A stretch of DNA of 38,496 nt from an uncultured Bdellovibrionales bacterium (GTDB lineage: Bacteria; Patescibacteriota; Minisyncoccia; Moranbacterales; UBA1568). The notes beneath the pieces were generated by a model. The model did not search any database. It had not been told where the DNA came from and worked only from the letters and a program-made list of their open reading frames with translations. This document shows positions 6,953 to 35,912 of the stretch, piece after piece. Made by a program: the position numbers and the translations under genes. The DNA is taken from the NCBI GenBank assembly GCA_964357915.1, contig CAYHND010000001.1, forward strand, positions 2,167 through 40,662, written 5' to 3'. Each line of letters begins with the position of its first letter. Position 1 is the first letter of the stretch.

Positions 6953-8047
6953 CTAGCAAGAAGCTGCGCCAGAGAAGCACGGTGTTCCCTGGGGATTACT
7001 GACTGGCAATGAAGGTTTTTTGATAGGGCTGGTTGTACCAATACCACCAGTGGTCTGATTGACCCGAGTGTTGAGAATCCCGCCTGCTGGTCCCAAGATA
7101 CCTTCAGCATCAGAAATAGCTCTGTTGGTCTGAGAATTGATAGTCCCGATTTCTTGACGGATGGTACGTTGGATGGAACCAGTCCCCCGCTGAATCACCT
7201 GGGTGATGGTACGGTTGACGACAGAACTGACTACTCCTCCGAGAAACTCTGCCGGATTGTCAGCGCCTACGATAATTTTGTTACCAAGGGTAGTGACATC
7301 ATCTATCAAATTCTGTACCGTTCCAGCCGTGGTGATGACATTCCCAGCGGCATCAAGAATTGGCTTGGTGCCAGAACTCTGAGCAATCACTTCTTGCTCT
7401 TTCTTTTTGTCTTCCAGCGTTTTGTTGTAGAGTTGCTCAGCCGCTATAGAAATACCAATCGGATTATTGGCTGGACTCGCTACGAGACAATTGATGGCTC
7501 GAAAATCTCCTTCAGCAATGGCTACTCTAGGATCGCTGTTACCCGTGTTACATTCAGCAAAGTTGTTCTTAGGAATTTTCTCAGCATTGACGGTAGACTT
7601 CAACACTGCTTCTTTGAGATAGCTATTGTAGTTGCCAGTAACCTTACTCCCCTGCAAGGCATCTACATAGTTAGCGCCAGACTCTGTGCCACGAAGTGAC
7701 TGGGAAAGAAAATCCTTAGTAATCACTCTGTTGGCTTTCTCTTCAGGTATGGTAGTCAGAAACTGCTCGAAATTATAGATAACACTACTCTCTCCAAGAC
7801 TACCGTCAATGAGTTGAAAAACCTGATTATTCAAAAGTTGGACAGCTGCTACTTTCAATGTTCCCAGCAGAGCCCCCTCTATCTGACGCTTGATACTCTC
7901 AATAGTAGTCTGCATGATAGCGGCCGCTATCGACTCCCCCCAAGCTCCAGCATGGGCTTTGGGAGCAGAGGTCATAAAAAGACTTACCACAAAGAAGGTA
8001 ACGATTATCTTTTTATTTCTCATACTCATTACACGGAACTTTGTCAT
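6953..8047 (-). CDS. secreted protein, function unknown
   Basis: 364-aa ORF with a signal-peptide-like N-terminus (MSMRNKKIIVTFFVVSLFMTSAPKAHA). Alternative starts are at 8029 and 8023. No recognisable domain. Confidence 0.7.
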   Translation of the reverse strand: MTKFRVMSMRNKKIIVTFFVVSLFMTSAPKAHAGAWGESIAAAIMQTTIESIKRQIEGALLGTLKVAAVQLLNNQVFQLIDGSLGESSVIYNFEQFLTTIPEEKANRVITKDFLSQSLRGTESGANYVDALQGSKVTGNYNSYLKEAVLKSTVNAEKIPKNNFAECNTGNSDPRVAIAEGDFRAINCLVASPANNPIGISIAAEQLYNKTLEDKKKEQEVIAQSSGTKPILDAAGNVITTAGTVQNLIDDVTTLGNKIIVGADNPAEFLGGVVSSVVNRTITQVIQRGTGSIQRTIRQEIGTINSQTNRAISDAEGILGPAGGILNTRVNQTTGGIGTTSPIKKPSLPVSNPQGTPCFSGAASC

Positions 8048-8052
8048 AGTAT

Positions 8053-9030
8053 CTATAATTCGAGTGGGATATCTACAATCTCATATTTTTCCAGAGCTCC
8101 CTGAACTTCACTGACAAACTGAGTTGATACACCAAGAAGACCTTGCAAACGTGAAAGTACCGCTATCTGACCGAGTGGGTCATCACTGGCTGGATTGATT
8201 TCTTGTTTGAGTGAGACCGCATAGAGCCCCATCTTGAGCGCCTTGATATGAATATCAAGCATTGCCTCTGGTACTTCGAGTTTCTGACTCTCATCAAGAA
8301 TCTTTTGGCCACGCTCTGCGAGTGTATTAGTAAAATCTTTATTACCGCTTGCCAGTGTCAAAACAGCTTGATTAGAGAGGTTACCCAACATCCCGCCAAA
8401 TTCATCCTCGTTGCTAAACTGGGCTGGAGAGTTGTCTACTACGATGTAGGACATAACGGTGAGGTATTCCAAGACATCTTTACGCTCCTGTGCTATGCGT
8501 TCTTTTTCTTTCAAACTACTACTCGGCGCTTTCTTTATTTTGATACTTGCCACATCTACTTCTGGTAAAGTAATTTCAGTTGATTGACTGGAGAGAGCTT
8601 GCTCCACTGCTCCGTTGATCTGATCAAAGGTGATCTCTTTGTTCTCACTGTCTATAGTACTGAGGACTCCGGAAATTTGTTGAGAGACTTCGTTTGTAAG
8701 GTTCGGACCTGACTCATTTAACTCTGTGGTCGTTTTCCTTTTTTCTTCATCCCCTGCCACAATGCGATCCCCTGGTGCTGGCAGTAATGGATTGTAACCA
8801 CTCTCTACCTCTACTCCATCAGAGTAGCCATCGCCATCTGTATCGGCTTTGTCCGGATTAGTACCATAAAGTTTTTCTTCATCAAGAGAAAGATTATCCT
8901 GATCACTATCAACGAAGATGTTTTTTGCGCTGCTCGTTGATTCTGCATCTACTGCCAAAAAACTCACTAGAAAAAAAAGTCCTAAAAAAAGACTGAGTGT
9001 AAGTTTGTCACGAAAAAATAAATATCCCAT
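8053..9030 (-). CDS. secreted protein with a thrombospondin-type-3-like calcium-binding repeat
   Basis: Signal or anchor helix followed by DSDQDNLSLDEEKLYGTNPDKADTDGDGYSDGVEVESGYNPL (a DxDxDG-type acidic repeat). Confidence 0.7.
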   Translation of the reverse strand: MGYLFFRDKLTLSLFLGLFFLVSFLAVDAESTSSAKNIFVDSDQDNLSLDEEKLYGTNPDKADTDGDGYSDGVEVESGYNPLLPAPGDRIVAGDEEKRKTTTELNESGPNLTNEVSQQISGVLSTIDSENKEITFDQINGAVEQALSSQSTEITLPEVDVASIKIKKAPSSSLKEKERIAQERKDVLEYLTVMSYIVVDNSPAQFSNEDEFGGMLGNLSNQAVLTLASGNKDFTNTLAERGQKILDESQKLEVPEAMLDIHIKALKMGLYAVSLKQEINPASDDPLGQIAVLSRLQGLLGVSTQFVSEVQGALEKYEIVDIPLEL

Positions 9031-9268: not shown

Positions 9269-10828
9269 CTATCCTCTCTCTTTAAGAGCTACCAAGATTC
9301 CTAGCCAAAAAATAGCTTGCCCCTGAGGAATAGTATAGAAAAAGTGATCTCCTAAAGCGAATACGATCAAAAAGAATACTACAGCCAGGTATTCTTTTGA
9401 ATGTTCCACGTGGAACATTTCCTTTTCATGATTCCCCTCTAATTGTTCCACGTGGAACATTGTGTCATTTTTCTTCTCTGTGATTACTTTTACTAGTAAG
9501 AAGATTATCAGAAACAACCCGATAGCTCCAAGCTCGTAGTAGGTTAAAAGAAAATAGTTATGAATAGGCTGGATACTCCAATCATTCACGCTGTATATTT
9601 GTGAATAGAGACGCGCACCATAAGAAGCGACTCCGTTACCGATCAACTGGAAATGACTCAGTTCTGAATATTCAACCAAGGAAAGTTCTCGCTCAGAAAA
9701 GCTTTTTAGTGAAGTAAGACCTCCTAGAGTCACTAAAAGGATTACTGCTAAAGCCATTAACCAATGTTCCACGTGGAACAATTGTATTTTCTTTTTTAGA
9801 GGAAATCTGGGAAATGTTCCACGTGAAACAATGAAAATACTCCCCAGCAGGGTCAAAAGTATGCCTGTCCTTGAAAAAGTAAGCATAAGAGCCATTACAA
9901 GTGTACCTATGACTAAATGTTCCACGTGGAACATTGTTTTTGATGAGTTTTTAGTTTCTACAGAAGATATTGTTCCACGTGGAACATTCTGGTGAATAAG
10001 GAGAACTAGTAAAGTAAGACCCAAAAAAGCGGCTAAAATATTGGGGTGAGGAAATAGCCCGTAGCCTCGAAGTATCTTCTCTCCGAATAGATTTATAGTA
10101 GCTATTCCCGGATTACCCACCCGCAAAAAGCTTTCTCCTAAGTACTTCAATCCAATAGAATGCTGTGTACTAACCTGTATAAAGACAACAAAAGCGTTAA
10201 ATAAAGCAAAGTAAGTCATTATCTTAATGATACTCCTATAAAGGACATCCTGTGTTCCACGTGGAACATTATTACTAGCTACTTGTTGTTCCACGTGGAA
10301 CATCCGTATTAGTTGTATCGAGATAAAAACACCTATTTCAGTCATAGTAAGAGCACTTCGTATAGCTAGGGGAATCTGATCTGCTTGAGTCACCGATAGC
10401 CATTGCCAAAGAATAAAGGCTAATATAAGCAATGTGATGCTTTTTAGAGTATGTTCCACGTGGAACATTCTTTGTTGGTCAGCATTTCCTGATTGTTCCA
10501 CGTGGAACATCTTTTTATATATTGACAATAATAGATACTCATGTTTTAATATTATATAGCCAAGCCACAAGAGAAACACTCCATCAAAAAGATAGACTGA
10601 TAGGTCTAGGTGCTCATTGAACAGACTCCCTTCGACCAACACATTCGGTATCAAGACTTTCTTGATATTCAATAAAAAAGCTACCAGAAGACTCATGGTA
10701 AGCCATTTCTCTACACTCTCTCCTTTTTTATCTTCACTGGTATTCATAGTCGTAGTGTACGTTTTTATAGTGAAGGGGACAAGAGATTGACTGAACAGGG
10801 GAATTAACAGATAATGAATGCGTTTCAA
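9269..10828 (-). CDS. Wzy_C / O-antigen-ligase-like polytopic membrane protein carrying ten in-frame parS-like palindromes
   Basis: 519-aa open frame with many hydrophobic helices. It has the motifs LTFSRTGILL and IHNYFLLTYYELGAIGL, shared with the two paralogs at 25296-27766. Alternative starts are at 10747 and 10696. Confidence 0.7.
   Translation of the reverse strand: MKRIHYLLIPLFSQSLVPFTIKTYTTTMNTSEDKKGESVEKWLTMSLLVAFLLNIKKVLIPNVLVEGSLFNEHLDLSVYLFDGVFLLWLGYIILKHEYLLLSIYKKMFHVEQSGNADQQRMFHVEHTLKSITLLILAFILWQWLSVTQADQIPLAIRSALTMTEIGVFISIQLIRMFHVEQQVASNNVPRGTQDVLYRSIIKIMTYFALFNAFVVFIQVSTQHSIGLKYLGESFLRVGNPGIATINLFGEKILRGYGLFPHPNILAAFLGLTLLVLLIHQNVPRGTISSVETKNSSKTMFHVEHLVIGTLVMALMLTFSRTGILLTLLGSIFIVSRGTFPRFPLKKKIQLFHVEHWLMALAVILLVTLGGLTSLKSFSERELSLVEYSELSHFQLIGNGVASYGARLYSQIYSVNDWSIQPIHNYFLLTYYELGAIGLFLIIFLLVKVITEKKNDTMFHVEQLEGNHEKEMFHVEHSKEYLAVVFFLIVFALGDHFFYTIPQGQAIFWLGILVALKERG
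9402..9417. promoter_or_regulatory. parS-like site 1 (TGTTCCACGTGGAACA)
   Basis: Perfect 16-bp palindrome, extended to the 18-bp palindrome ATGTTCCACGTGGAACAT at 9401-9418. Confidence 0.7.
9444..9459. promoter_or_regulatory. parS-like site 2 (TGTTCCACGTGGAACA)
   Basis: Perfect 16-bp palindrome, 42 bp centre-to-centre from site 1. Confidence 0.7.
9765..9780. promoter_or_regulatory. parS-like site 3 (TGTTCCACGTGGAACA)
   Basis: Perfect 16-bp palindrome. Confidence 0.7.
9815..9830. promoter_or_regulatory. parS site 4 (TGTTCCACGTGAAACA)
   Basis: Identical, as I recall it, to the Bacillus subtilis spo0J-internal parS and to the consensus TGTTNCACGTGAAACA. It lies 50 bp from site 3. Confidence 0.75.
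9918..9933. promoter_or_regulatory. parS-like site 5 (TGTTCCACGTGGAACA)
   Basis: Perfect palindrome; the 18-bp version spans 9917-9934. Confidence 0.7.
9971..9986. promoter_or_regulatory. parS-like site 6 (TGTTCCACGTGGAACA)
   Basis: Perfect palindrome, 53 bp from site 5. Confidence 0.7.
10253..10268. promoter_or_regulatory. parS-like site 7 (TGTTCCACGTGGAACA)
   Basis: Perfect palindrome. Confidence 0.7.
10287..10302. promoter_or_regulatory. parS-like site 8 (TGTTCCACGTGGAACA)
   Basis: Perfect palindrome, 34 bp from site 7. Confidence 0.7.
10452..10467. promoter_or_regulatory. parS-like site 9 (TGTTCCACGTGGAACA)
   Basis: Perfect palindrome; the 18-bp version spans 10451-10468. Confidence 0.7.
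10494..10509. promoter_or_regulatory. parS-like site 10 (TGTTCCACGTGGAACA)
   Basis: Perfect palindrome, 42 bp from site 9. Confidence 0.7.
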
Positions 10829-10923: not shown

Positions 10924-10996
10924 GGGCCCTTAGCTCATCTGGTAGAGCGCTCCCATGGCATGGGAGAGGTGAACGGTTCAAGTCCGTTAGGGTCCA
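10924..10996 (+). tRNA. tRNA-Ala (anticodon GGC)
   Basis: Cloverleaf with acceptor gggccct/agggtcc including the G3:U70 alanine identity pair, and anticodon loop atGGCat. Confidence 0.9.
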
Positions 10997-11049
10997 CACT
11001 TAAATTCGCTTGGATAAAGCTGTATAAACTAGTACAATCCCTTACACAA

Positions 11050-11121
11050 GCCTCCGTAGCTCAATGGATAGAGCTATCCCGTCCTAAGGGAGAGATCTGG
11101 GTTCGATTCCTGGTGGGGGCA
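11050..11121 (+). tRNA. tRNA-Arg (anticodon CCT)
   Basis: Cloverleaf with acceptor gcctccg/tgggggc, anticodon loop gtCCTaa and T-loop ttcgatt. There is one A:G mismatch at the top of the anticodon stem. Confidence 0.8.
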
Positions 11122-11196
11122 CTTTAAAATTCAAAAGGGGACTCTTTCTTTTTTTGGTCTACCATGCTAGACTAGTTCGTTACTAACCAAAAACAG

Positions 11197-13410: not shown

Positions 13411-13959
13411 TTAGTCCACCACCTGAGCACTAAGATTCTGACGTCCAAAAGCAAAAGCTTCTGACTTGGTCTTCACATAGATGTCAAAGTGATTTCCCTT
13501 GATAGCACCTCCACGATCTTCACAACGGTACTCACCCATTCCTTCAATACTGATTTTGGTACCGAATGGGTATTGTTTAGGACAAGCAAGGGTACGTTTT
13601 TCAGTCACCTTAAGTCCTGAAGCGGTAATACCATCAGACTTACCACATTCATCAGCGGCTGCCGTATAGGCAGAGGCGTTGATAGTGAAAGAGTCTCGTG
13701 AAAGCTTCTCCCAGAGGGCTGCTTGTTTGGTTTTCCAATGAGCAAGGGTTTTGTCCTCAAAAGAGAGAACTTTTTCTTCAACAGGAGCCTTGTTAGTGTC
13801 ATTCTTGAATGTCCACTCAAGAAGGTATGGATCCTGTGAATAGTTATAACCCTGTATAACTGGTAATTCGATGATTTGAGCCGCTACGCTAGACGTATTG
13901 GCAAAAAATCCGGTAATGCTGACTATGGCTACGAAAAGAAGTTCTTTTCGATACGTCAT
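13411..13959 (-). CDS. secreted 3D-domain (MltA/RlpA-like fold) cell-wall protein
   Basis: N-terminal signal or anchor, then C-terminal TASGLKVTEKRTLACP...GTKISIEGMGEYRCEDRGGAIKGNHFDIY, the 3D (Asp-Asp-Asp) domain pattern. Confidence 0.75.
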   Translation of the reverse strand: MTYRKELLFVAIVSITGFFANTSSVAAQIIELPVIQGYNYSQDPYLLEWTFKNDTNKAPVEEKVLSFEDKTLAHWKTKQAALWEKLSRDSFTINASAYTAAADECGKSDGITASGLKVTEKRTLACPKQYPFGTKISIEGMGEYRCEDRGGAIKGNHFDIYVKTKSEAFAFGRQNLSAQVVD

Positions 13960-24153: not shown

Positions 24154-25299
24154 ATGAGAAAACTCTTCCTCAGCTCACTCGCACTTTTTTTACTAGTCAT
24201 CATTTTTTTGTTGGCTTATAACTTCGCGTTTAAGAACAATGCTAGCGAGCCCAAGGTTACCTCTGATACCAAGGAAGAAGCCGTGACTCCAGAAGAAGGT
24301 TTTGGTAAAGAAAAAGAACCGGCCATAGCTACCGCCGTCACCAACCCTATTAACGAAAGTGTCCTTGGTGCCGTCACGGGTCCCAACAACAGTATTTTTT
24401 ACTACTCACAAGATGACCAGGCTTTCAAAAAAGCCACTCTCGAAGGTAAGGATAAGACCGTTCTCATGACCAATCTCCCCGGTAAACCCCTTCGCGTTAC
24501 CTGGTCTACTAAGCGCGATGCCGCCCTAGCACTCATTGAAGGAACGCCTACCCCTCGCTGGTATTCAATTAATTTTCCTACTAAATCTCTCACTCCGCTT
24601 AAAGCAGAAATTACTAAAGTAAGCTGGGGATCTCTCGGGGACAAAATCTACTACTTATTCAAAAATCCCTCTACTAAGGAATTTTCTCTCAATCGCTCTA
24701 ATGCTGACGGCAGCGACTGGAAGGAGATTGCGGTGGTAGGAAGTAGAGATCTTTTCTTAGGTACCATTCCCCAGTCCAACCGTATTTCCTTTTGGACGAG
24801 GCCAAATGGCTTAGAAGAAAGCTTTTTTGATGCTATTGATGCTGATGGGAACAATCGCACTAAGCTTTTCAATGGTCGTTATGGCGGTGATTACTTGTGG
24901 TCACCTAATGGAGAACGGGTGGTCGTAAGCGCCTCACTTACCAAGGGTGGCCCAGTCACTCTGGCTGTGATGAACAAAAATGGAGGAGAGCTACAGTCTC
25001 TCAATATTCCTACTCTCATCTCCAAAGTAGTGTGGTCCAGTGATAGCTCAAAGCTCTTCTATGCTCTTCCAGGCGGTTTAGGTGAAGCTCTGCTACCCAA
25101 TGATTACTTCGAGAAAAACCTCGCCTCACAGGACACTTTTTGGCAAATAGACCTCGGCACCGGCAAGAGTAGTCGCCTCCTCGAATTGGGTGATATTGGC
25201 CAATCTTTCGATAGTACTGATCTTTCCTTATCAGCTGATGAGCGTATCTTGTTCTTTACTGATAGAGTGACAAAGAAAATCTATCGTATTGAACTCTAG
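24154..25299 (+). CDS. membrane-anchored TolB-like / PD40 beta-propeller protein
   Basis: The start was chosen at MRKLFLSSLALFLLV (TM anchor), 5 nt after the previous stop. It has PD40-like repeats (WSPNGERVVVSA, VVWSSDSSKLFY, ILFFTD). Confidence 0.7.
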   Translation: MRKLFLSSLALFLLVIIFLLAYNFAFKNNASEPKVTSDTKEEAVTPEEGFGKEKEPAIATAVTNPINESVLGAVTGPNNSIFYYSQDDQAFKKATLEGKDKTVLMTNLPGKPLRVTWSTKRDAALALIEGTPTPRWYSINFPTKSLTPLKAEITKVSWGSLGDKIYYLFKNPSTKEFSLNRSNADGSDWKEIAVVGSRDLFLGTIPQSNRISFWTRPNGLEESFFDAIDADGNNRTKLFNGRYGGDYLWSPNGERVVVSASLTKGGPVTLAVMNKNGGELQSLNIPTLISKVVWSSDSSKLFYALPGGLGEALLPNDYFEKNLASQDTFWQIDLGTGKSSRLLELGDIGQSFDSTDLSLSADERILFFTDRVTKKIYRIEL

Positions 25300-26513
25300 T
25301 CTTCTTCTATATACCAGAGCGTAAGGAGCACTTGTAGCCAAAAAAGAAAGGCGAGATCATTTCTGAAGTAGGGTGTATCGATAAGCCCATAGCAAAGAAA
25401 TACGAACCAAAGAGCCAAAAGAAGTCCCCCTTCATTTTGGTTTTTTCTTTGTGTACTCTCAAATAATCTAACAACGAGCCTTCCTAGGATCAAAATAAAG
25501 CCAAGTAACCCTAGAAAGCCCGTCTGTAGCCATACGGCCAATAGAAGATTATGTGGCTGTGGAACAGCCCATTCAAGATAGGGGGTAAAGTGTGGCTGAT
25601 AGGCTAGGTACTCTCGCTGGAAGTTTCCCACACCAATTCCCAAAAACCAATGATCTTGTAGTATAGCCCAACTTGACTGCCAAATCATGACCCGCGAATC
25701 AAGTGATGAACGGCTATCCTCAAGAAACAGATCCTGCCACTTGCTACTATCGTGCTCCAGAAAAAGGAGAATGCCCAGTGCTAGTACTACTACTGCAACA
25801 AAGATGCCTAGTTTTTGCCGACTCTCACTCTCTGTTTTTTGTATCCATAAGAGCAAAAGACTTGCCAAAACTGCCAGAATGAGAGCTAGCCAGGTGTTGT
25901 ATGAGTGAGTGAGGTATAGCGGGATTAAGAGAAGGGTAGCTGTAGAGAGGAAAAACGCTCTTTTGCACCAGGTATTTGCTTGAAAAAGAAAGAAGATCGC
26001 TAAGAGAATGCCAGGGGCAACTAATAAGGCCAGAAAGTTGGGTGAATTATAAGGAAAAGCCAGTCGCCCATCGTAGGTGAGTATATGATGACTATATCCA
26101 TACAGAGCGGTGAAAGCTACGATGATGACTCCTACTAACCAAGACCCGTAGATAAGCATCCTCTCTTTATACTCCCCCCTCTGAAGGCTATAGAGTGTAA
26201 GGGCAAACACGAGGGGAAAGAGGAACCATGACTTGAGTTGACCGAGTGATGTGAGAGATACTGATTGACTTTGGTAGAGGATGGACATAATCGCTCCCGC
26301 CACAAACAAGATTCCCCCTAGGGCAATCCAGCGGTCAAAACCCTGCCATCTCACCCGTAAGCTCTCCTTGGTTACCTTCCACACACTCAACCCAAGGAAA
26401 ACTATGAAAAGGGCTTCCAAAAAGTACACTGGAAAACCAAAAACGGTCACTTTTTCAAGTGCTAAGACGAGGGATGCTGGCAAAAGAAAGAGTATGGCCT
26501 GTGAAAACATCAT
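25296..26513 (-). CDS. O-antigen ligase (Wzy_C) family membrane protein
   Basis: Polytopic, with the motif PHNLLLAVWLQTGFLGLLGF (HN-x2-L-x4-Q/E-x-G-x2-G-L). Confidence 0.75.
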   Translation of the reverse strand: MMFSQAILFLLPASLVLALEKVTVFGFPVYFLEALFIVFLGLSVWKVTKESLRVRWQGFDRWIALGGILFVAGAIMSILYQSQSVSLTSLGQLKSWFLFPLVFALTLYSLQRGEYKERMLIYGSWLVGVIIVAFTALYGYSHHILTYDGRLAFPYNSPNFLALLVAPGILLAIFFLFQANTWCKRAFFLSTATLLLIPLYLTHSYNTWLALILAVLASLLLLWIQKTESESRQKLGIFVAVVVLALGILLFLEHDSSKWQDLFLEDSRSSLDSRVMIWQSSWAILQDHWFLGIGVGNFQREYLAYQPHFTPYLEWAVPQPHNLLLAVWLQTGFLGLLGFILILGRLVVRLFESTQRKNQNEGGLLLALWFVFLCYGLIDTPYFRNDLAFLFWLQVLLTLWYIEED

Positions 26514-27766
26514 ACGGTTTTTGTTCTTGGAACAGCTTGGTACGCTACAAGAAGAAAAAGAGCAAACATGACGTGAAAAGAAAAGAGTGGTGCTTCAAAG
26601 AAGCCGTGAAAAAGAAAATAGATGGTACTGATACCACAAGCAAGCATGAGTGGGTCTTGACTATCTCGCCACCTTCTGAAACCTAACCACAAAGCGCTTC
26701 CAATAAAAGAGAGAAACAGGAGTAAGCCAATGAAACCCGTCTCAACTGCGATATCTAAATACAAATTATGAACATAGATAGGTTCTCTCATTGAGGCATC
26801 TGGTTTAACGAGAAGCGGATAGTTACCCACACCTACTCCTAAGAAGGGTCTTGTGAAACTATAGTGGACAGCTTCTTCGAGGAGACGGAGACGTTCGGTA
26901 CGAGAACCGTCTTCTGCTGACACACTTGAAAGTATTCTTGGGCCAACTGGTGTGGCAAAAAATACTCCTCCCAATAACAGCATCCCTACTAAAAAGTACT
27001 TACCGTACTGACGATAATCTTTAGCAAGCAGGATAGAAAGTAGAATTATACTCGTCAACAAAATTGCCGTGTAGGCTCCTCTGGAAAAGGTGAGCAGTAT
27101 TGCTACTCCTACCAGAACAAAGCTAAACTTGGCCACGAAAGTTCTTACTGTGTGCTGCCAGACATAGACTAGAGGAAGAGCAAGACCTAAATACAAACTC
27201 AGTGTGTGGGGATCAGGGAAAAAAGCCGTCACCCGTAAGTAGGTGGTTCCTAAAACATTTACCAAAAGGCTCGGGTATTCTTTGACCACAAGAGCGAAGT
27301 TATTACCCAGAAAAAATGGCAACACCTGGGTATTCCAAAGAGTCAGAATTTCATCAAGTGAAAGAAAAAACTGTAGACCGGCTTCTATACAAGCTACAAG
27401 AGCAATCAGTATCGCGCCATAAACAAAAGCCTGGGCGAGTTTAGCTAGTTTTTCTTGGCTCAGTGTCAGTAAGATTGGAAACAATAGACCTATATTCAGT
27501 AAAAAAACGACCTTACGCATACTCCAGGTAGGATCCAGAGCCCACAGTGGGGAGAGAGCACTCCAGAGAAGCCAAAAAAGAAAGAGTGCTAAAACACCGA
27601 GAGCTCGTATTTCTATCTGTCTTTGAAGTAGTGTTCGTACCAGCCAGCTGACTGATAGAAGTACCACTACTACTCGAGCTATGGGCAAGTCAATACTCGC
27701 AACAGGATTTAAGGCAAAGCTAAAAGGGAGGAGGAGGTAGAAATAATACAGAAGTCCCTCAAGCAT
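26510..27766 (-). CDS. O-antigen ligase (Wzy_C) family membrane protein
   Basis: Polytopic, with LLTFSRGAYTAILL and VHNLYLDIAVETGFIGLLLF. It shares an ATGA overlap with the downstream paralog. Confidence 0.8.
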   Translation of the reverse strand: MLEGLLYYFYLLLPFSFALNPVASIDLPIARVVVVLLSVSWLVRTLLQRQIEIRALGVLALFLFWLLWSALSPLWALDPTWSMRKVVFLLNIGLLFPILLTLSQEKLAKLAQAFVYGAILIALVACIEAGLQFFLSLDEILTLWNTQVLPFFLGNNFALVVKEYPSLLVNVLGTTYLRVTAFFPDPHTLSLYLGLALPLVYVWQHTVRTFVAKFSFVLVGVAILLTFSRGAYTAILLTSIILLSILLAKDYRQYGKYFLVGMLLLGGVFFATPVGPRILSSVSAEDGSRTERLRLLEEAVHYSFTRPFLGVGVGNYPLLVKPDASMREPIYVHNLYLDIAVETGFIGLLLFLSFIGSALWLGFRRWRDSQDPLMLACGISTIYFLFHGFFEAPLFSFHVMFALFLLVAYQAVPRTKTV

Positions 27767-27770
27767 ATTC

Positions 27771-28568
27771 TTAGTAACTATCTAAATTCTCACATCTTTT
27801 GAAAAAGTGAAAGCCTCTTAACAAAATTTGTTCGTACCAGGGTCGCATTTTATGAAAGTAATACTTTTGTGATTCATAGTAAGCCTTTTTTTGTGCTCTC
27901 GGCGACTTCTGACTCTTACCGCGAAAATGTGTGATTTTCAAATCTCCATACACATAGGCGGGGTGGCCTGCTTGTCTGGCTCGTTCACAAAAATCAACAT
28001 CCTCATAGTACAGAAAGTAGTGCTCATCAAAGCCACCAAGTGTATCAAACGTTTCTTTGCGAAAAAATAATGCGCCGCCACTCACCCAATCCACTCGTTT
28101 TTTCTCACTCACTGATGGCGTTACTCTGAAGAGGTGATTCTCAACTAACCTCAAGAAATGCACCCTCTTTCCGAAACCATGCTGTTCTTGCTTGCCATTT
28201 TCATCAAACAACCCCAGACCAATGAGACACTCCTCTTGGCGCAGACGAGTTTCTACTTCTGATAACTGTGTCTGCACCCAGAGAGTATCTGGGTTGAGCA
28301 GACCCACCAAAGGAGTGTTGACTGTCCGTACTCCCTGATTGACCGCCTTCGCAAAACCGACATTACCGGCGCTCTCAATAACCCTTGCTCGATACTGGTT
28401 ACCCAGTGTTGCAATTATTTGTGTTTCTCGTTCGTCATTGTTAACAATAATGAGCTCGTACTGAGAGCGGTCTTCATGAAGGGAGATACTCTCTAGAGCT
28501 TTGGTTAAGTACTGGCTACTATTATAATTGACGAATATGAGAGAAGTGGTGGGCATTTTTGCGATCAT
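27771..28568 (-). CDS. family 2 glycosyltransferase
   Basis: SLIFVNYNS, IIVNND and YYEDVDFCERA (the DxD / ED region of GT2). The start is either 28568 or 28556; the track start at 28628 overlaps the upstream gene heavily. Confidence 0.8.
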   Translation of the reverse strand: MIAKMPTTSLIFVNYNSSQYLTKALESISLHEDRSQYELIIVNNDERETQIIATLGNQYRARVIESAGNVGFAKAVNQGVRTVNTPLVGLLNPDTLWVQTQLSEVETRLRQEECLIGLGLFDENGKQEQHGFGKRVHFLRLVENHLFRVTPSVSEKKRVDWVSGGALFFRKETFDTLGGFDEHYFLYYEDVDFCERARQAGHPAYVYGDLKITHFRGKSQKSPRAQKKAYYESQKYYFHKMRPWYEQILLRGFHFFKRCENLDSY

Positions 28569-29400
28569 AAAAATCTTGATACGCCTCTCTGACTCGGGTA
28601 GCTTGAGGCTGACCCAACAAGATATCAAAGCGGTTTTTTAGTCTTCTTAGTATAACATAAATGGCTTGATAGAAAGAAAAAACCCTATTTTTATGTTTCT
28701 CAAAGAAGATAAGTCCTGAGAGTACCAGATGGTAGGTTTTGGTGGGATTGAACTGACTTTCTTCACTATGGAGTACTCGTGATGCTGGTACCACCATCAG
28801 GGGTATCTGTAAATTCTTAGCCCGCAACGAATAGTCGGCATCTTCGTAGTACAGAAAAAAATCTTCATCAAGCAAACCTACTTTTTGAATCATGGATACT
28901 GGTAAAAAAAGAGCGCAGCCCGTGAGAAAGTTGGTACTAGTAATCTTCGTTGGCACCGAACCTTGGTCATGCTCTACTCGCATTCGAAGAAAGTTAATCC
29001 TCCCACCCGAAAACCAGTTGTTATGATACTGATCCAAAATCAACGGACTTAAGAGTACCCTATCCTCTCTTTGTTCTGCTGCTCTGACTAAAGGTTCGAG
29101 TGCATCGGGTTCGGCTAAAGCATCATAATTGAAAAGCCATACGTAGTCGGCTTGTTTGCTTACAGCATACTCAATACCCCGATTCATACCATAGCCAAAG
29201 CCTCCATTACGAGGCAATGCCAAAAAAGAGTACTCTGGAAACTGAGCCTGAGCCTGAGCAAAAGACTCATCGCTGGACGCATTATCTACAACTAGAATCT
29301 CTTTGTGAGGATAAGAAAGTGCTCGTAAAGAAGTGAGGGTCTTTATGAGGCATTTTTGACCATTGTAGTTCAATACTACGATGACAACTTGACCCGCCAT
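28522..29400 (-). CDS. family 2 glycosyltransferase
   Basis: VVIVVLNYNG, VVDNASSD and FFLYYEDADYSLRA. Confidence 0.85.
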   Translation of the reverse strand: MAGQVVIVVLNYNGQKCLIKTLTSLRALSYPHKEILVVDNASSDESFAQAQAQFPEYSFLALPRNGGFGYGMNRGIEYAVSKQADYVWLFNYDALAEPDALEPLVRAAEQREDRVLLSPLILDQYHNNWFSGGRINFLRMRVEHDQGSVPTKITSTNFLTGCALFLPVSMIQKVGLLDEDFFLYYEDADYSLRAKNLQIPLMVVPASRVLHSEESQFNPTKTYHLVLSGLIFFEKHKNRVFSFYQAIYVILRRLKNRFDILLGQPQATRVREAYQDFYDRKNAHHFSHIRQL

Positions 29401-29404
29401 ACAA

Positions 29405-30859
29405 TTAGGGTATGAATGTTTCTGGAGTAATGGTACGTGCTTCTTTGTTCAGAAGGAGCATCTTTATTTCTGCGTAGGTAACCACTCGAGTAAGCCAGAG
29501 ACCAAAAACATACATGATGCCTCCACTAAGACCCGCTACGATAAATGAGTACTGGTCAAAGTAATACATTGTGCCCGCCATGAGAAGTGTCGCGAAAAGA
29601 ATACGTGGAAGCGGCTTAAATGAAGGCCTAAACTGAATCTCTCGAAAGGCCAGTGCCCCAATGAGGAGGACTACTAGACACTCTGTAATGAGAGATACTC
29701 CTGCTGCTGCTATGTATGAGTACTTGGGAATAAGAGCCAGGTTGAGGCCAATATTCACGACGGCTGCAATGAGCAGGGCTTTCATCAATTTCTTTTGAGC
29801 ATTACCCACCACTAGTAGCATGGTGAAGTAGTGTCCAAAGAAAATAAATCCGAGTGCAAATATCAGAATGCGAAGTACTCGCACAGATTCCTCAAAACCC
29901 GTGCCACTAACAATAGCAATAATTTCTGGCGCCAAAACCCAGACACCGACCACCAACGGGAAAACGATAAGCAAAAACACCTTAAAGGTTTTATCAACGA
30001 TGTCTTCAAAAAGAGCCCTATTGGTGCTCAGTGTTCGTGAAAGAAGTGGCAGAATAAGACCCGCTAACATAGCTGGAAAGAAAATCAGATTCTCCATGAT
30101 TTTGTAGGCCACGTTGTAGATACCTACATCGCTGTTGCTTTGCAGGACAGAAAGGATAATCGTATCTAGCTTGAAGTAGGCAAAGGTGATGAGGGCTGTA
30201 GCTGCCAATGGTGAGGCTTCTCGCAGGAACTCTTTCCAAAAACGAGTGTCGACTTTGAGTGAGAATTTCACAAATGATCGACTCAACCAAAAAACCAGTA
30301 GCGCATTAAACGCTAGGGCAGCAAGAAGGGTACTGGCTACCGCGAGAAAACCCCAGTCATTACGAACAATGAGCGTCACCAGAACTACCTGCAAAAGTTT
30401 GCCGAAGAACTCTACAAAAGCTACTCGATCCATGGCTAGATTCTTCTGAAAGATCCCGTTGAGGAGGAGGGATGAAGAAGAAAAGAGTACCGCAATAGCA
30501 GCTATTACAATTCCTATTTTTAGATCTGACTCATAATTAAAGAAAAAGAGTACTAATGGAGCAAATATCAAAAGTACAGCCGATGAGAGTAAACGTAAGG
30601 CGAGCACTCTTCCCAAGATACGTTTCTCATCAGCACCCTCTTTGGATATTTCTCGTGCTGTCACTGGAGCCAGACCAAGATCAACAATAGCACTAAAGAA
30701 GGCAAAAAAGGCAAGAACAGTAGCATATTTTCCAAAACCTTCAGGGCCAAGATACTCTGTAATCAATCGAATCGAATACAAAGAGAGTACCACTGTTGAA
30801 AAAACCTTGAAGATAGAGTTTAAGACTACGTTATAGGCAATCTTTCTCGCTAATGGCAT
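29405..30859 (-). CDS. Wzx-like oligosaccharide flippase (MOP superfamily polysaccharide biosynthesis protein)
   Basis: 484 aa with about 12-14 TM helices and the typical N-terminus (NSIFKVFSTVVLSLYSIRLITEYLGPEGFGKY). Confidence 0.8.
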   Translation of the reverse strand: MPLARKIAYNVVLNSIFKVFSTVVLSLYSIRLITEYLGPEGFGKYATVLAFFAFFSAIVDLGLAPVTAREISKEGADEKRILGRVLALRLLSSAVLLIFAPLVLFFFNYESDLKIGIVIAAIAVLFSSSSLLLNGIFQKNLAMDRVAFVEFFGKLLQVVLVTLIVRNDWGFLAVASTLLAALAFNALLVFWLSRSFVKFSLKVDTRFWKEFLREASPLAATALITFAYFKLDTIILSVLQSNSDVGIYNVAYKIMENLIFFPAMLAGLILPLLSRTLSTNRALFEDIVDKTFKVFLLIVFPLVVGVWVLAPEIIAIVSGTGFEESVRVLRILIFALGFIFFGHYFTMLLVVGNAQKKLMKALLIAAVVNIGLNLALIPKYSYIAAAGVSLITECLVVLLIGALAFREIQFRPSFKPLPRILFATLLMAGTMYYFDQYSFIVAGLSGGIMYVFGLWLTRVVTYAEIKMLLLNKEARTITPETFIP

Positions 30860-32797: not shown

Positions 32798-34207
32798 ATG
32801 ACTAATGAAGAGCTGTGGAAAGCTGTTTTAGGCCAGATAGAGCTTTCACTTTCGAAGGCTAATTTCATTACCTGGTTCAAAAATACCTCTCTCCTGGAAA
32901 TTAATCAGGGGAAAGTTGTTATCGGTGTACCAAACGGCTTTGCTAAAGAATGGCTAGAAAACAAGTATAATAGTCATATTTTGAAGGCTTTGCGTTCTCT
33001 TGATCCTTCTATACAGCATATGCGTTGTATGATTGCTCTTCCGGATGTGAACAACAAAAGTCTTCCTCGCTCTATCGATGCAGCTATCCCCAGAGAAACG
33101 AATTCCTTTGTTCGTAAAAAGATTATTGAAAAGCCATCTTTCACAGCTAATAACATTTCTCTACAACAGGAAGTATTCCACGCGAGTAGTCTTAATTCTC
33201 GTTACACCTTTGAAAACTATATCGTAGCTGAAAACAACGAACTGGCTCATGCCGCGTGTCACGCTGTTTCTCAAAGTCTTGGAACACTCTACAACCCTCT
33301 CTTTATTTACGGCGGAGTTGGCCTTGGGAAAACACATCTTCTTCAGTCTATTGGTAATGAGGTTATGAAGAATCACCCAGAAAAACGCATTAAGTACATT
33401 ACTTCAGAGCGCTTTACTACCGAGCTTGTCGATTCTATCAAGAACCAGAAGATAGACCTCTTTAAGGAGTACTATCAACAAATGGATCTCCTTATTATTG
33501 ACGATGTCCAGTTTCTGTCAGGAAGGGAAAAGACTCAACATGAATTCTTCCATATTTTTAATGCTCTCTATCAAATCAACAAGCAGATTGTCATCTCAAG
33601 TGACCGGCCACCCAAAGCTATTGGCACACTTGAGGAGCGACTCCGTTCACGTTTTGAGGGTGGTATGATCACTGATATTAGTCAACCAAGCTTAGAGACC
33701 CGCATTGCTATATTAAGCTCCAAAGTATCTGAACGAGGTGTTTTTGTAGAGGAAGAGGCTCTTCGCTATATTGCTCAAAACATCAACCAGAATGTCCGCG
33801 AGCTTGAGGGTGCTCTTAACCGAGTTATTGCTTATTGTGATTTTCGTAAAATACCAGCCAATTTAAGTAATACTGAAAAGATTCTCAATGAGCTTCTTGA
33901 AAAAAATCGTAAAAATATCTCTGTAGAGAGTGTTTTTACAGCTATTTGTGACTACTACTCCGTTTCTCGTGAGGAACTTATCAAAAAGGGTCGCAAAAAG
34001 GAGATCTCACATCCTCGCCAAATCCTTATGTATCTTCTCCGCCAAGAACTCTCTACCCCTTTTTCTTCTATTGGAGATCTTTTGGGTGGAAGAGACCACA
34101 CTACTATTCTTCATGCGTATGAAAAGATCCAAAATCAAAAAGAGTCCTCTCGAAAAATAAAAGAGGAACTTTCTCAAATAAAAGAGCGCCTTTACTACGT
34201 TACCTAG
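32798..34207 (+). CDS. dnaA: chromosomal replication initiator protein DnaA
   Basis: Walker A GGVGLGKTHLL, LIIDDVQFL, an RFEGG sensor region and the C-terminal DNA-binding helix (GGRDHTTILHAYEKI). Confidence 0.95.
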   Translation: MTNEELWKAVLGQIELSLSKANFITWFKNTSLLEINQGKVVIGVPNGFAKEWLENKYNSHILKALRSLDPSIQHMRCMIALPDVNNKSLPRSIDAAIPRETNSFVRKKIIEKPSFTANNISLQQEVFHASSLNSRYTFENYIVAENNELAHAACHAVSQSLGTLYNPLFIYGGVGLGKTHLLQSIGNEVMKNHPEKRIKYITSERFTTELVDSIKNQKIDLFKEYYQQMDLLIIDDVQFLSGREKTQHEFFHIFNALYQINKQIVISSDRPPKAIGTLEERLRSRFEGGMITDISQPSLETRIAILSSKVSERGVFVEEEALRYIAQNINQNVRELEGALNRVIAYCDFRKIPANLSNTEKILNELLEKNRKNISVESVFTAICDYYSVSREELIKKGRKKEISHPRQILMYLLRQELSTPFSSIGDLLGGRDHTTILHAYEKIQNQKESSRKIKEELSQIKERLYYVT

Positions 34208-34459: not shown

Positions 34460-35602
34460 ATGAAAATCATTTGTACTCAAGAAAACCTCCTCCAAGCACT
34501 AAGTGCTCTTGATAGAGTAGTGGGGAAACAAAGTTCACTCCCAATTCTTAGTAACTTCCTCTTTGAAACAGAGAAGGGTCGCCTTAAAATATCTGCTACC
34601 AACCTCGAAATAGGTATTTTGGTTTATGTAGGAGCAAAAATAGAAAAAGAGGGAAAGATAGCAGTACCAGCTCGTATACTCTCTCAATTTGTCCAAAATT
34701 TGCCGAGTGGTGAGGTTTTAGAGCTAGAAGTAAAGGATAGACACCTTTCTATTAAAGGAGGGTCCTCAGAGATGAAAATTAAAGTGCTTGATGGGAAAGA
34801 TTTTCCAATAATTCCCCACTACAAAAAGGAATATCCCCTTACATTACCAGCTCAGAGTATTAAGCGAGCTCTTGGAAGACTTTTGTTTTGTGTGAGTACG
34901 AATGAGTCGAGAATTGAACTGACAGGTGTTCAGCTTCTTTTTGAGGAAAACCAACTCTCTTTGGCTGCGACGGATAGTTTTCGTTTAGCAGAAGAGATTA
35001 TTCCCTACACAAAAGCTTTGGTAAACAACGAACAATACACCTCACTTATTATTCCCACCCAAACCCTACAGGAAATAAGTCGTTCGCTTGGGGCTGAGGT
35101 TGACGAGGTAAAGATGGCTCTTGAGGAAAACCAACTCTTTTTTGAGTTAGGGAATATTCAAATTGTGTCGCGGGTTATCAATGGAAAATTCCCAGACTAC
35201 AAACAAATTATCCCCCAAGATCTCAAAACAAAAGTAGTTCTTGAAAGAGATGCCCTTATTCGCTCACTCAAAATAGCGAGCACACTCTCTTCTTATACAG
35301 CCGGAGAGATAGCGTTGGTACTTAACCCGAGTGATAAAAGTTGTACAGTGATCGCTCGCTCACAGGAAGTGGGGGAAAACCAGAGTGTTCTAGAGGGAGA
35401 GTTTCTAGCTGGTACAGAACCACTTACACTTGTCTTCAACCCACGCTACCTTATTGAGGGGTTAGGTGCTTTTACAGAAAAGAAAGTTCTTTTTTCAGCC
35501 AATACCCCATCAAGTCCAACAACATTTCAGGCTATTTCTACAGAAGGTCAGGAGACAGACTATGTCTACGTTATGATGCCTATCCGTAAAGAATATGCGT
35601 AA
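34460..35602 (+). CDS. dnaN: DNA polymerase III beta sliding clamp
   Basis: 380 aa with a typical DnaN N-terminus (MKIICTQENLLQAL...VVGKQSSLPILSNFLFE) and ATDSFRLA. Confidence 0.9.
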   Translation: MKIICTQENLLQALSALDRVVGKQSSLPILSNFLFETEKGRLKISATNLEIGILVYVGAKIEKEGKIAVPARILSQFVQNLPSGEVLELEVKDRHLSIKGGSSEMKIKVLDGKDFPIIPHYKKEYPLTLPAQSIKRALGRLLFCVSTNESRIELTGVQLLFEENQLSLAATDSFRLAEEIIPYTKALVNNEQYTSLIIPTQTLQEISRSLGAEVDEVKMALEENQLFFELGNIQIVSRVINGKFPDYKQIIPQDLKTKVVLERDALIRSLKIASTLSSYTAGEIALVLNPSDKSCTVIARSQEVGENQSVLEGEFLAGTEPLTLVFNPRYLIEGLGAFTEKKVLFSANTPSSPTTFQAISTEGQETDYVYVMMPIRKEYA

Positions 35603-35912
35603 TATAAAGGATCTTTTTCAAGAGAAAAAGAAGTTAGTAGCCAAAAAAATAGAACCGACTCTTGATGAGAAAACCATCTTCTTTGTTTTTAAGAGAGTTT
35701 TTCGTGAGCTGTATGGACCAAAGGGTGAAGAGAGTGTAGAGCCCTTACGTGTCTACGAGAAAAAGCTCTATATCAAACCAAAAACTTCATTGTGGGCTAA
35801 TGAAATACTCCTCCATAAAGAGAAATTGGTACAGAAAACAAATCAAACTCTTGAGGGGGAATACCTCTCTGATATTACTTTGACGCAACGTTCATTTGAG
35901 AACACCAAGTAA
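35595..35912 (+). CDS. DUF721 / DciA-like small protein
   Basis: 105 aa, overlapping the dnaN stop by 8 nt. The pattern ...LRVYEKKLYIKPKTSLWANEILLHKEKLVQKTNQTLG resembles the DUF721 core (L.V.V.S..WA.EL......L...N). The assignment is from memory. Confidence 0.55.
   Translation: MRNIKDLFQEKKKLVAKKIEPTLDEKTIFFVFKRVFRELYGPKGEESVEPLRVYEKKLYIKPKTSLWANEILLHKEKLVQKTNQTLEGEYLSDITLTQRSFENTK

Follow-up and report, generated by a model that had tools for sequence, protein, structure and literature searches.

The stretch of DNA analysed here, a window of 38,496 bp from an ultra-small groundwater bacterium of the Moraniibacteriota (CPR/Patescibacteria), carries ten canonical ParB-binding parS palindromes, all embedded in one gene for a WaaL-like membrane protein. 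Together they are most probably the organism's chromosomal centromere, to the left of dnaA/oriC. Our verdict is that the parS centromere is real and that it takes a new, gene-embedded array form that we did not find described; literature searches combining parS/ParB with CPR or Patescibacteria, for MFHVEH, and combining parS with O-antigen ligase retrieved no relevant paper.

The window was scanned for TGTTCCACGTGGAACA with a tolerance of two mismatches. Ten matches were obtained, all within 9402-10509, of which nine are exact and one is the variant TGTTCCACGTGAAACA; elsewhere in the 38,496-bp window there is no further copy even at two or fewer mismatches. In 100 dinucleotide-preserving shuffles, the mean number of matches was 0.00 and the maximum 0. 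An earlier note on this DNA had reported nine plus one palindromes in this interval and none in the rest of the window, and the exact scan agrees. The sites start at 9402, 9444, 9765, 9815, 9918, 9971, 10253, 10287, 10452 and 10494, the site at 9815-9830 being the sole TGTTCCACGTGAAACA, which we take to be the Bacillus spo0J-internal site (Lin & Grossman 1998). Start-to-start spacings of 42, 321, 50, 103, 53, 282, 34, 165 and 42 bp arrange the ten 16-bp palindromes into five pairs, with no strand assigned to the array as a whole. Homology among the copies ends about 1-2 nt beyond the 16-mer, the spacers are unrelated, and flanks beyond approximately 20 nt are not conserved. All ten sites fit the parS palindrome pattern TGTTNCACGTGNAACA, and the 16-mer agrees with the Bacillus consensus, which in B. 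subtilis is TGTTNCACGTGAAACA. The nine exact sites are sequence-identical to parS2 and parS3 of P. aeruginosa, TGTTCCACGTGGAACA, the experimentally defined highest-affinity ParB site (PMC4368675).

All ten palindromes lie within one intact open reading frame on the minus strand (9269..10747), a point that had escaped the earlier note, although its sites and their location stand. The gene encodes a 492-aa, 12-TM, WaaL/O-antigen-ligase-like protein of the Wzy_C family. Gene calling likewise yields 492 aa, the protein P0001 (492 aa) is 100% identical to it, and a longer TTG-start frame extending to 10828 is probably an artefact. Like WaaL and other O-antigen ligases (PF04932), the protein has a predicted 12-TM fold with Arg/His/Asp invariants in its outer loops, but it falls below the PF04932 threshold and its cytoplasmic loops are lengthened by parS-encoded peptides. 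Most homologues at 25-35% identity carry PF04932, and the profile match in the host protein itself is probably broken up by the parS-encoded loop inserts. The AlphaFold2 (AF2) model (pTM 0.85) has WaaL 7TPG as its top PDB match (E=1e-4, probability 1.00, TM-score only 0.45-0.53) and places conserved Arg/His residues on the predicted outer face. The invariant residues R227, H234, R353, H396 and D467/H468 map to predicted outer loops and are presumably catalytic. Lys plus Arg account for 23 of 150 residues in the five loops and two termini predicted to be cytoplasmic, versus 9 of 136 in the outer loops. With dS saturated, dN/dS is 0.13-0.22; this purifying selection shows only that the protein is functional, and a glycan ligase or polymerase activity is putative. 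Two further Wzy_C genes in the window (25296-26513 and 26510-27766, both on the minus strand) are paralogues that match PF04932 and contain no parS, providing an internal negative control. Thirteen distant ligase-like matches from Saccharibacteria, Doudnabacteria and other groups, which are either orthologues or paralogues, carry zero or one parS.

Within the protein, the sites occupy five predicted cytoplasmic loops, two sites to each, where they are read as MFHVEH/Q or VPRGT, and five low-confidence (low-pLDDT) loops of the AF2 model coincide with the five pairs. In loop A (TM2-TM3; 10452..10509; all loops on the minus strand), positions 10494-10509 encode MFHVEQ (aa 80-85) and 10452-10467 encode MFHVEH (aa 94-99), 42 bp apart; most orthologues have one site there, which suggests that this lineage gained 42 bp in frame. 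Loop B (TM4-TM5; 10253..10302) holds MFHVEQ (10287-10302, aa 149-154) and NVPRGT (10253-10268, aa 160-165), 34 bp apart and in differing reading frames, and both sites are kept in four orthologues (L001-L004). Loop C (TM6-TM7; 9918..9986) comprises NVPRGT (9971-9986, aa 254-259) and MFHVEH (9918-9933, aa 272-277), 53 bp apart. In loop D (TM8-TM9; 9765..9830), the TGTTCCACGTGAAACA site at 9815-9830 is translated as IVSRGT (aa 306-311) and lies 50 bp apart from LFHVEH (9765-9780, aa 323-328), and loop E (TM10-TM11; 9402..9459) contains MFHVEQ (9444-9459, aa 430-435) and MFHVEH (9402-9417, aa 444-449), 42 bp apart. Across the family, 468 of 489 parS sites map onto cytoplasmic loops, and the host protein is about 11 aa longer for each additional site. 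The protein seems to be permissive in its cytoplasmic loops, which in effect have become carriers of centromere DNA.

Relatives were identified using parS-independent peptide patterns, which gave a sample of the window and 61 related genome loci. In this sample, 452 of 453 parS-like sites are inside the host reading frame, and none occurs in the host-gene flanks of the 61 loci, which total 943,764 bp. Orthologues occur across the Parcubacteria group with 2 to 18 copies depending on the species, the largest set occupying approximately 1.6 kb, and the positions are orthologous across species. Because relatives keep the same arrangement, a single stretch of DNA appears to serve as both gene and segregation handle. 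In L001, two sites are split by an apparent 21-bp insert of unrelated sequence. The parS sites are read in all three frames, with 431 occurrences of FHVE, 379 of VPRGT and 221 of CSTWN among 120 homologues, and matching loop positions change frame between species. Third codon positions are invariant in 31 of 40 cases within parS versus 23 of 368 outside. Moreover, 370 of the 453 copies are identical and 429 fit TGTT[CT]CACGTG[GA]AACA; variation is almost confined to positions 5 and 12, the degenerate positions of parS, and includes nine C-A changes. At the level of these sequence comparisons, selection acts on the DNA of the parS sites itself.

The origin marker dnaA (32798..34207, plus strand) is flanked on its left by rnpA-yidC-jag and on its right by dnaN-dciA, with dnaN at 34460-35602. 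The array lies to the left of dnaA/oriC, and its end is 22.3 kb from dnaA by these coordinates, which bears out the earlier estimate of about 22 kb. Among relatives, the host gene of L172 is approximately 10.5 kb from yidC, and the array of L144 is immediately upstream of dnaA. The centromere reading, already proposed in the earlier note, is supported by the canonical ParB site sequence, identical to P. aeruginosa parS2/3, at a single locus of the window 22.3 kb from dnaA, and by DNA conservation that is independent of reading frame.

Known chromosomal parS sites of ParABS systems are likewise origin-proximal, whereas here all ten share one gene and 1.1 kb, none is intergenic, and parAB does not adjoin them. 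Streptomyces and Listeria have about 22 parS sites, and the spo0J site of B. subtilis provides a precedent for parS within coding sequence. Another precedent is C. glutamicum parS1 in trpCF; the ten parS of that species extend over 35 kb and nine are intergenic (PMC7083940), while the five strongest sites of Caulobacter lie within 5 kb (PMC5815017). The clustered centromeres of Caulobacter, C. glutamicum, Streptomyces and Listeria similarly comprise several near-origin parS and one ParB nucleation zone, but at far lower density than the present array, where ten sites in 1.1 kb amount to about 9 per kb, all coding. The density had been called unusual before, and the comparison with C. glutamicum and Caulobacter upholds this. 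In the sopC centromere of the F plasmid, the ParB-family protein SopB binds 43-bp repeats arranged in tandem. This centromere is alike in being a dense array, with about a dozen ParB-family sites in roughly 0.5-1 kb; however, sopC is non-coding and has longer tandem direct repeats and another site sequence, whereas here the 16-mer alone is repeated between unrelated spacers and everything is translated.

In an unbiased metagenome sample, palindrome pairs of other phyla were found within 400 bp of parA at 46 of 120 loci and in or beside gidA at 30 of 120, and pairs also occur in rsmG. In gidA (mnmG) and rsmG, two perfect TGTTCCACGTGGAACA copies 28-58 bp apart are inserted in frame where an origin-proximal housekeeping gene encodes a loop, as exemplified by L126 ('KMFHVEHSGTQ...NVPRGT'). 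These genes differ from the CPR gene in having 2-3 sites each, a soluble enzyme as host and usually an adjacent parAB. The spacing also differs: neighbouring sites are in frame in only 4 of 208 cases in the CPR gene, compared with 14 of 17 gidA-embedded pairs. A 'deletion lock' was rejected as a general rule, given that intergenic pairs are uniform modulo 3 (16/20/20) and gidA-embedded pairs mostly in frame. The rule of out-of-frame spacing thus holds for the CPR gene alone, where inheritance may be enough to explain it.

Pfam and NCBIfam gave no ParA or ParB domain in any ORF of the window that reaches 100 aa, and tblastn of the window with B. subtilis Spo0J and Soj yielded no match; these empty searches agree with the earlier statement that the window has no parA or parB. 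In the 61 related loci, neither was detected up to 10 kb on either side of the host gene (tblastn, and a GxRRxRA regular expression over 1.06 Mb of CPR loci). Because the same queries detect both proteins in other loci, this absence is a true negative, within ±10 kb only. Contigs bearing the window proteins reach only about 2 kb past the window. Weak Soj-like matches in L021, L043 and L047 were identified as formate-tetrahydrofolate ligase, and L083, in which Soj stands beside a parS pair, was ruled out as CPR by its Firmicute-type recF-dnaN-dnaA...mnmE-mnmG-rsmG-soj order. Among Parcubacteria genomes, COG1475 (ParB family) is listed in 13 of 17 and SMC in 14 of 17, in a table that labels the COG1475 row 'predicted transcriptional regulators', covers other Parcubacteria and not the present lineage, and has no COG1192 row in its core set (PMC4508563 supplement). 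Motif searches of the loci for ClpB, DprA and DnaX, all three syntenic with COG1475 in that table, gave nothing. The idea that two conserved neighbours, orf364 and a TSP3-repeat protein, are hidden partners that bind DNA was rejected; because their N-terminal hydrophobic segment resembles a signal peptide, they are probably exported.

The lack of ParA in the window and loci, together with the missing COG1192 row, would also suit a different role for the sites, in which a palindrome-binding protein of the ParB family or another kind mainly regulates the host gene, for example as a roadblock coupling expression of the envelope-glycan ligase to the cell cycle, rather than acting in segregation. 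All sites share one transcription unit, and chromosomal ParB alters gene expression in P. aeruginosa (PMC4368675). Nonetheless, we consider regulation as the main role unlikely, as 10-18 perfect sites far exceed the needs of a repressor, the array is origin-proximal here, in L172 and in L144, and the same palindrome is a parAB-linked centromere in other phyla. Regulation and segregation are compatible and not mutually exclusive.

An explanation at the RNA level is very improbable. Every site is transcribed within the coding sequence and could form a stem-loop, several were flagged as hairpins by a terminator scan, and the sites fall exactly at transmembrane helix/loop boundaries, so ten 6-bp mRNA hairpins might pause ribosomes at each cytoplasmic loop as an aid to membrane insertion, or stabilise the transcript, with the likeness to parS being coincidental. 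However, an RNA stem would accept compensatory changes anywhere, whereas most copies are identical, variation is almost confined to positions 5 and 12, and the nine C-A changes would disrupt base pairing in such a stem. In an Rfam search at E<=1 the hairpins had nothing but chance matches below threshold, the two Wzy_C paralogues of the window are without such hairpins, and elsewhere parAB has the same 16-mer beside it in non-coding DNA. Even less credence can be given to a mobile or selfish palindrome (REP/MITE-like), a DNA-uptake sequence or a restriction-related motif that piled up in a tolerant gene. Many identical short palindromes, a copy number that ranges widely between species and the insert in L001 would be in keeping with such an element, but similarity stops about 2 nt past the 16-mer, the 944 kb of flanks hold no copy, positions are orthologous across species, and uptake sequences and REPs scatter genome-wide rather than in one gene. 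Selection on the MFHVEH peptide, for instance as a His-rich metal site with an incidental palindrome, is scarcely credible despite seven occurrences of MFHVEH/Q in the host protein and a VSRGT motif that distant homologues conserve in an outer loop, as the same DNA is read in three frames that switch between species, synonymous positions are frozen, and the segments are low-confidence loops in AF2.

With the array read as a chromosomal centromere, we infer by analogy with ParABS biology that ParB may bind there, spread and recruit SMC. ParB dimers with CTP would load at each parS, close into clamps and slide out to adjoining DNA; the partition complex would then recruit SMC, and ParA, if present, would move it. 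With ten such sites in 1.1 kb, this very small genome would have one compact loading zone of high capacity. It is doubtful, though conceivable, that the centromere lies on purpose in a gene for a polytopic membrane protein, as a transertion tether and/or for ParB gating of ligase expression. If the WaaL-like protein were inserted into the membrane while its gene is still being transcribed and translated, parS and the origin would be tethered to the envelope, and ParB occupancy could gate expression of the envelope-glycan ligase to the replication cycle. In addition, reading-frame selection on an important gene would guard the array from recombinational collapse, which fits the near-absence of in-frame spacings.

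A simple marker of the centromere and origin region in fragmented CPR metagenome bins is the WaaL-like gene with its many MFHVEH, VPRGT and CSTWN motifs, and the natural, compact 1.1-kb array of ten sites can be used to study cooperative ParB loading. The arrangement raises the questions of how ParB clamps share a gene with RNA polymerase, why it is this gene every time and whether such minimal cells segregate their DNA by ParB and SMC only. If the tether reading is true, transertion would constitute a membrane-anchored segregation handle for tiny, possibly ParA-less cells. The array represents dual coding in an extreme and clean form, with the same 16 bp kept as both protein-binding centromere and membrane-protein part across a large, mostly uncultured radiation.

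When the whole window was searched for TGTTCCACGTGGAACA with up to 2 mismatches, exactly ten matches were found, all within 9402-10509, which bears out the ten parS-type palindromes counted in the earlier note; shuffled window sequence contained no match. Nine sites are exact, and the tenth, at 9815-9830, is TGTTCCACGTGAAACA. The exact form is identical to parS2/parS3 of P. aeruginosa, a perfect palindrome and the highest-affinity ParB target (PMC4368675). The ten sites are arranged as five pairs, whose members start 42, 50, 53, 34 and 42 bp apart, and separations between pairs are 103-321 bp. Because the likeness among the ten copies stops 1-2 bases outside the 16-mer, the array contains no longer repeat unit. 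The origin lies where it had been placed, with dnaA at 32798-34207 and dnaN at 34460-35602, 22.3 kb separating the array end from dnaA, in a typical context (rnpA-yidC-jag / dnaA-dnaN-dciA). The DciA-family gene, a helicase-loader candidate (35595-35912, plus strand), lies directly 3' of dnaN and overlaps its end. A glycan-assembly cluster adjoining the origin (25296-30859) comprises two Wzy_C paralogues, two GT2 glycosyltransferases and a Wzx-type flippase, and occupies the slot between jag and the genome remainder that is the gidAB-parAB slot in many bacteria; the two paralogues (25296-27766) carry no parS. The unusual density proposed earlier also holds: C. glutamicum has ten parS over 35 kb, one alone coding (PMC7083940), and the five strongest Caulobacter sites lie within 5 kb (PMC5815017), whereas here ten sites occupy 1.1 kb and all are coding.

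A point missed in the earlier note is that one minus-strand ORF encloses all ten sites. This host gene (9269-10747) encodes 492 aa, is annotated at that length on a Hainich groundwater contig and has an identical 492-aa counterpart in a public collection (P0001); a 519-aa ORF with a TTG start, reaching 10828, is probably an over-extension. The palindrome lacks a stop codon in every frame, and of the window sites seven are translated as MFHVEH/Q and the other three as (N/I)V(P/S)RGT. Homologues of the product are Patescibacteria proteins of the O-antigen-ligase family (PF04932). An AlphaFold model based on 60 homologues (pTM 0.85) contains 12 long helices, and its closest PDB structure is the WaaL O-antigen ligase 7TPG (E=1e-4), with a modest TM-score of 0.45-0.53. 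Low-confidence segments of the model (approximately aa 70-88, 150-167, 253-274, 307-326 and 424-451) coincide exactly with the five loops bearing parS pairs. Given an N-terminus inside, the topology established for WaaL, these loops are predicted to be cytoplasmic. Lysine and arginine account for 23 of 150 residues in the five loops and both termini versus 9 of 136 in the outer loops, and the family-invariant residues R227, H234, R353, H396 and D467/H468 are all on predicted outer loops. Between the host-gene start and rbfA lie plus-strand genes for tRNA-Ala(GGC) (10924-10997) and tRNA-Arg(CCT) (11050-11122). Downstream on the minus strand are genes for two apparently exported proteins, directly adjacent a TSP3-repeat protein with a signal-peptide-like hydrophobic N-terminal segment (8053-9030) and then a 364-aa protein without a family match but with a signal-peptide-like start (6953-8047); this pair (6953-9030) keeps its place in Moraniibacteriota loci, with ftsH as the next gene.

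Scanning a single genome for each GTDB species with two conserved peptides not encoded by parS returned 61 loci, mostly from Moraniibacteriota and other Parcubacteria-group members. The earlier note had suggested counting the palindrome in related genomes; at these 61 host-gene loci and the window, with at most 1 mismatch to TGTTNCACGTGNAACA, 452 of 453 parS-like sites fell within the single host ORF, the other lying 30 bp beyond a truncated host-gene copy at a contig end, and the flanks, 943,764 bp in total, held none. The ORF stays open for 450-708 codons and carries 1-18 sites, which use all three reading frames, and host-protein length grows by approximately 11 aa per site. Perfect copies of TGTTCCACGTGGAACA number 370 of the 453, and almost all variation affects positions 5 and 12, where the parS consensus is itself degenerate. 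In the orthologous gene of L001, the closest GTDB relative (contig CAZLQC010000001.1), an identical 21-bp insert, the GC-rich near-palindrome CGTGCCTACCGGCAGGCAGGC, interrupts two parS precisely at their centres (354-374 and 909-929) and keeps the frame (MFH-RAYRQAG-VEH); absent from 64 other loci, it may be either a very small site-specific insertion or an irregularity of the assembly. Predicted cytoplasmic loops hold 468 of 489 sites, a count that includes 35 where helix 3 begins on the cytoplasmic side, and 20 map to the large outer loop. This loop, between TM9 and TM10, has a motif conserved at the protein level, (N/D)VSRGTI, in one related locus (L053) and in distant database homologues (P0011, P0012, P0044). 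In some species the DNA encoding the motif resembles parS; the motif may have been the ancestral seed from which the gene came to host parS, or the likeness may be coincidental. Thirteen distant ligase-like matches (Saccharibacteria, Doudnabacteria and others) carry no more than one site each and may be paralogues, and each of the best 120 database homologues, from a word-based search biased towards such proteins, contains at least two parS-derived peptides. Several TPA-assembled MAGs that are clearly Patescibacteria (L001, L002, L004, L010, L013 and others) are titled 'uncultured Bdellovibrionales', 'Methanosarcinales archaeon', 'Ignavibacteriaceae' or 'Gammaproteobacteria'. FtsH of L001, L002, L004 and L013 is 78-95% identical to that of the window, and synteny is kept; the automated names are evidently wrong and such taxon labels unreliable.

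Selection was assessed across the window gene and four of its orthologues (L001-L004). Outside the parS sites, dN/dS was 0.13-0.22 at saturating synonymous divergence (dS 1.2-4.4), and the host protein is therefore under purifying selection. Among these five genes, third codon positions were invariant at 31 of 40 within parS versus 23 of 368 outside. Selection acts on both the host protein and the DNA palindromes. That selection targets a peptide motif is excluded, since the sites are read in three frames and synonymous positions within parS are frozen. The palindromes are also unlikely to serve as RNA hairpins, being invariant without covariation and matching no Rfam family, and a mobile or REP-like element is unlikely given conservation confined to the 16-mer and flanks devoid of copies.

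As an unbiased control, metagenomes were scanned for two perfect copies 28-58 bp apart, which yielded at least 120 loci. Among the 120 matches listed, 46 pairs were within 400 bp of parA/soj, 30 were in or beside gidA (15 in frame inside it), 3 were at rsmG and 4 inside the CPR ligase-like gene; 37 were assigned to none of these contexts, 33 of them lacking a recognisable neighbour. A Soj or Spo0J homologue was present at 53 loci. The same paired palindrome is thus a parAB-linked centromere in other phyla. Pairs in gidA/mnmG (L126, L164 and 13 other metagenome loci) and rsmG (L120) are perfect, in frame and within a loop, mostly in high-GC phyla, for example '...SKMFHVEHSGTQTTTHPSELPNVPRGTIPP...'. 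Embedding of parS in origin-proximal housekeeping genes seems widespread, and in-frame embedding in such a gene is not unique to CPR; the CPR gene is set apart by its number of sites, its single membrane-protein host and its conservation. In that gene, the distance from one site to its neighbour is a multiple of 3 in no more than 4 of 208 short spacings, two of these being the window's own 42-bp pairs, so neighbours almost never share a frame. Within one loop, frames often cycle FHVE -> VPRGT -> CSTWN. Intergenic pairs near parA are uniform in spacing modulo 3 (16/20/20), whereas gidA-embedded pairs show the opposite bias (14 of 17 in frame). Since the loci are not independent, the out-of-frame bias may reflect shared descent instead of selection.

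As the earlier note had stated, neither parA nor parB was found in the window, and neither turned up in the 10 kb on each side of the host gene at the related loci; the same queries readily detected both proteins at other loci. COG1475 is the ParB/Spo0J family. For 17 Parcubacteria genomes, the core-gene table of Nelson & Stegen 2015 (PMC4508563) records COG1475, labelled 'predicted transcriptional regulators', in 13 and SMC in 14; it has no row for COG1192 (ParA). On contig L144, from a CPR relative whose DnaA shares 53% identity with that of the window, five perfect parS (13583-13837) are non-coding and directly upstream of dnaA, in a tandem array with a unit of approximately 145 bp and two sites that extends to the contig end; in L172, another relative, the host gene is approximately 10.5 kb from yidC. 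A host-type gene also lies near dnaA in distant relatives without parS (L056, L059), so the ligase-like gene may simply be the nearest tolerant gene.

Although parS itself is well known, an array of ten to eighteen sites embedded in a gene and conserved across a CPR clade was not found in the searchable literature. A mainly regulatory role of ParB at the host gene is a less likely possibility. For a centromere, the more likely reading, established ParABS biology suggests that ParB-CTP dimers would nucleate at each parS and, once closed into clamps, slide to the neighbouring DNA, that the complex would then load SMC, and that ParA, if it exists, would segregate it. Ten sites in 1.1 kb would constitute a single compact, high-capacity loading zone, and in the ligase-like protein the cytoplasmic loops seem to be the regions permissive enough for centromere DNA to accumulate.
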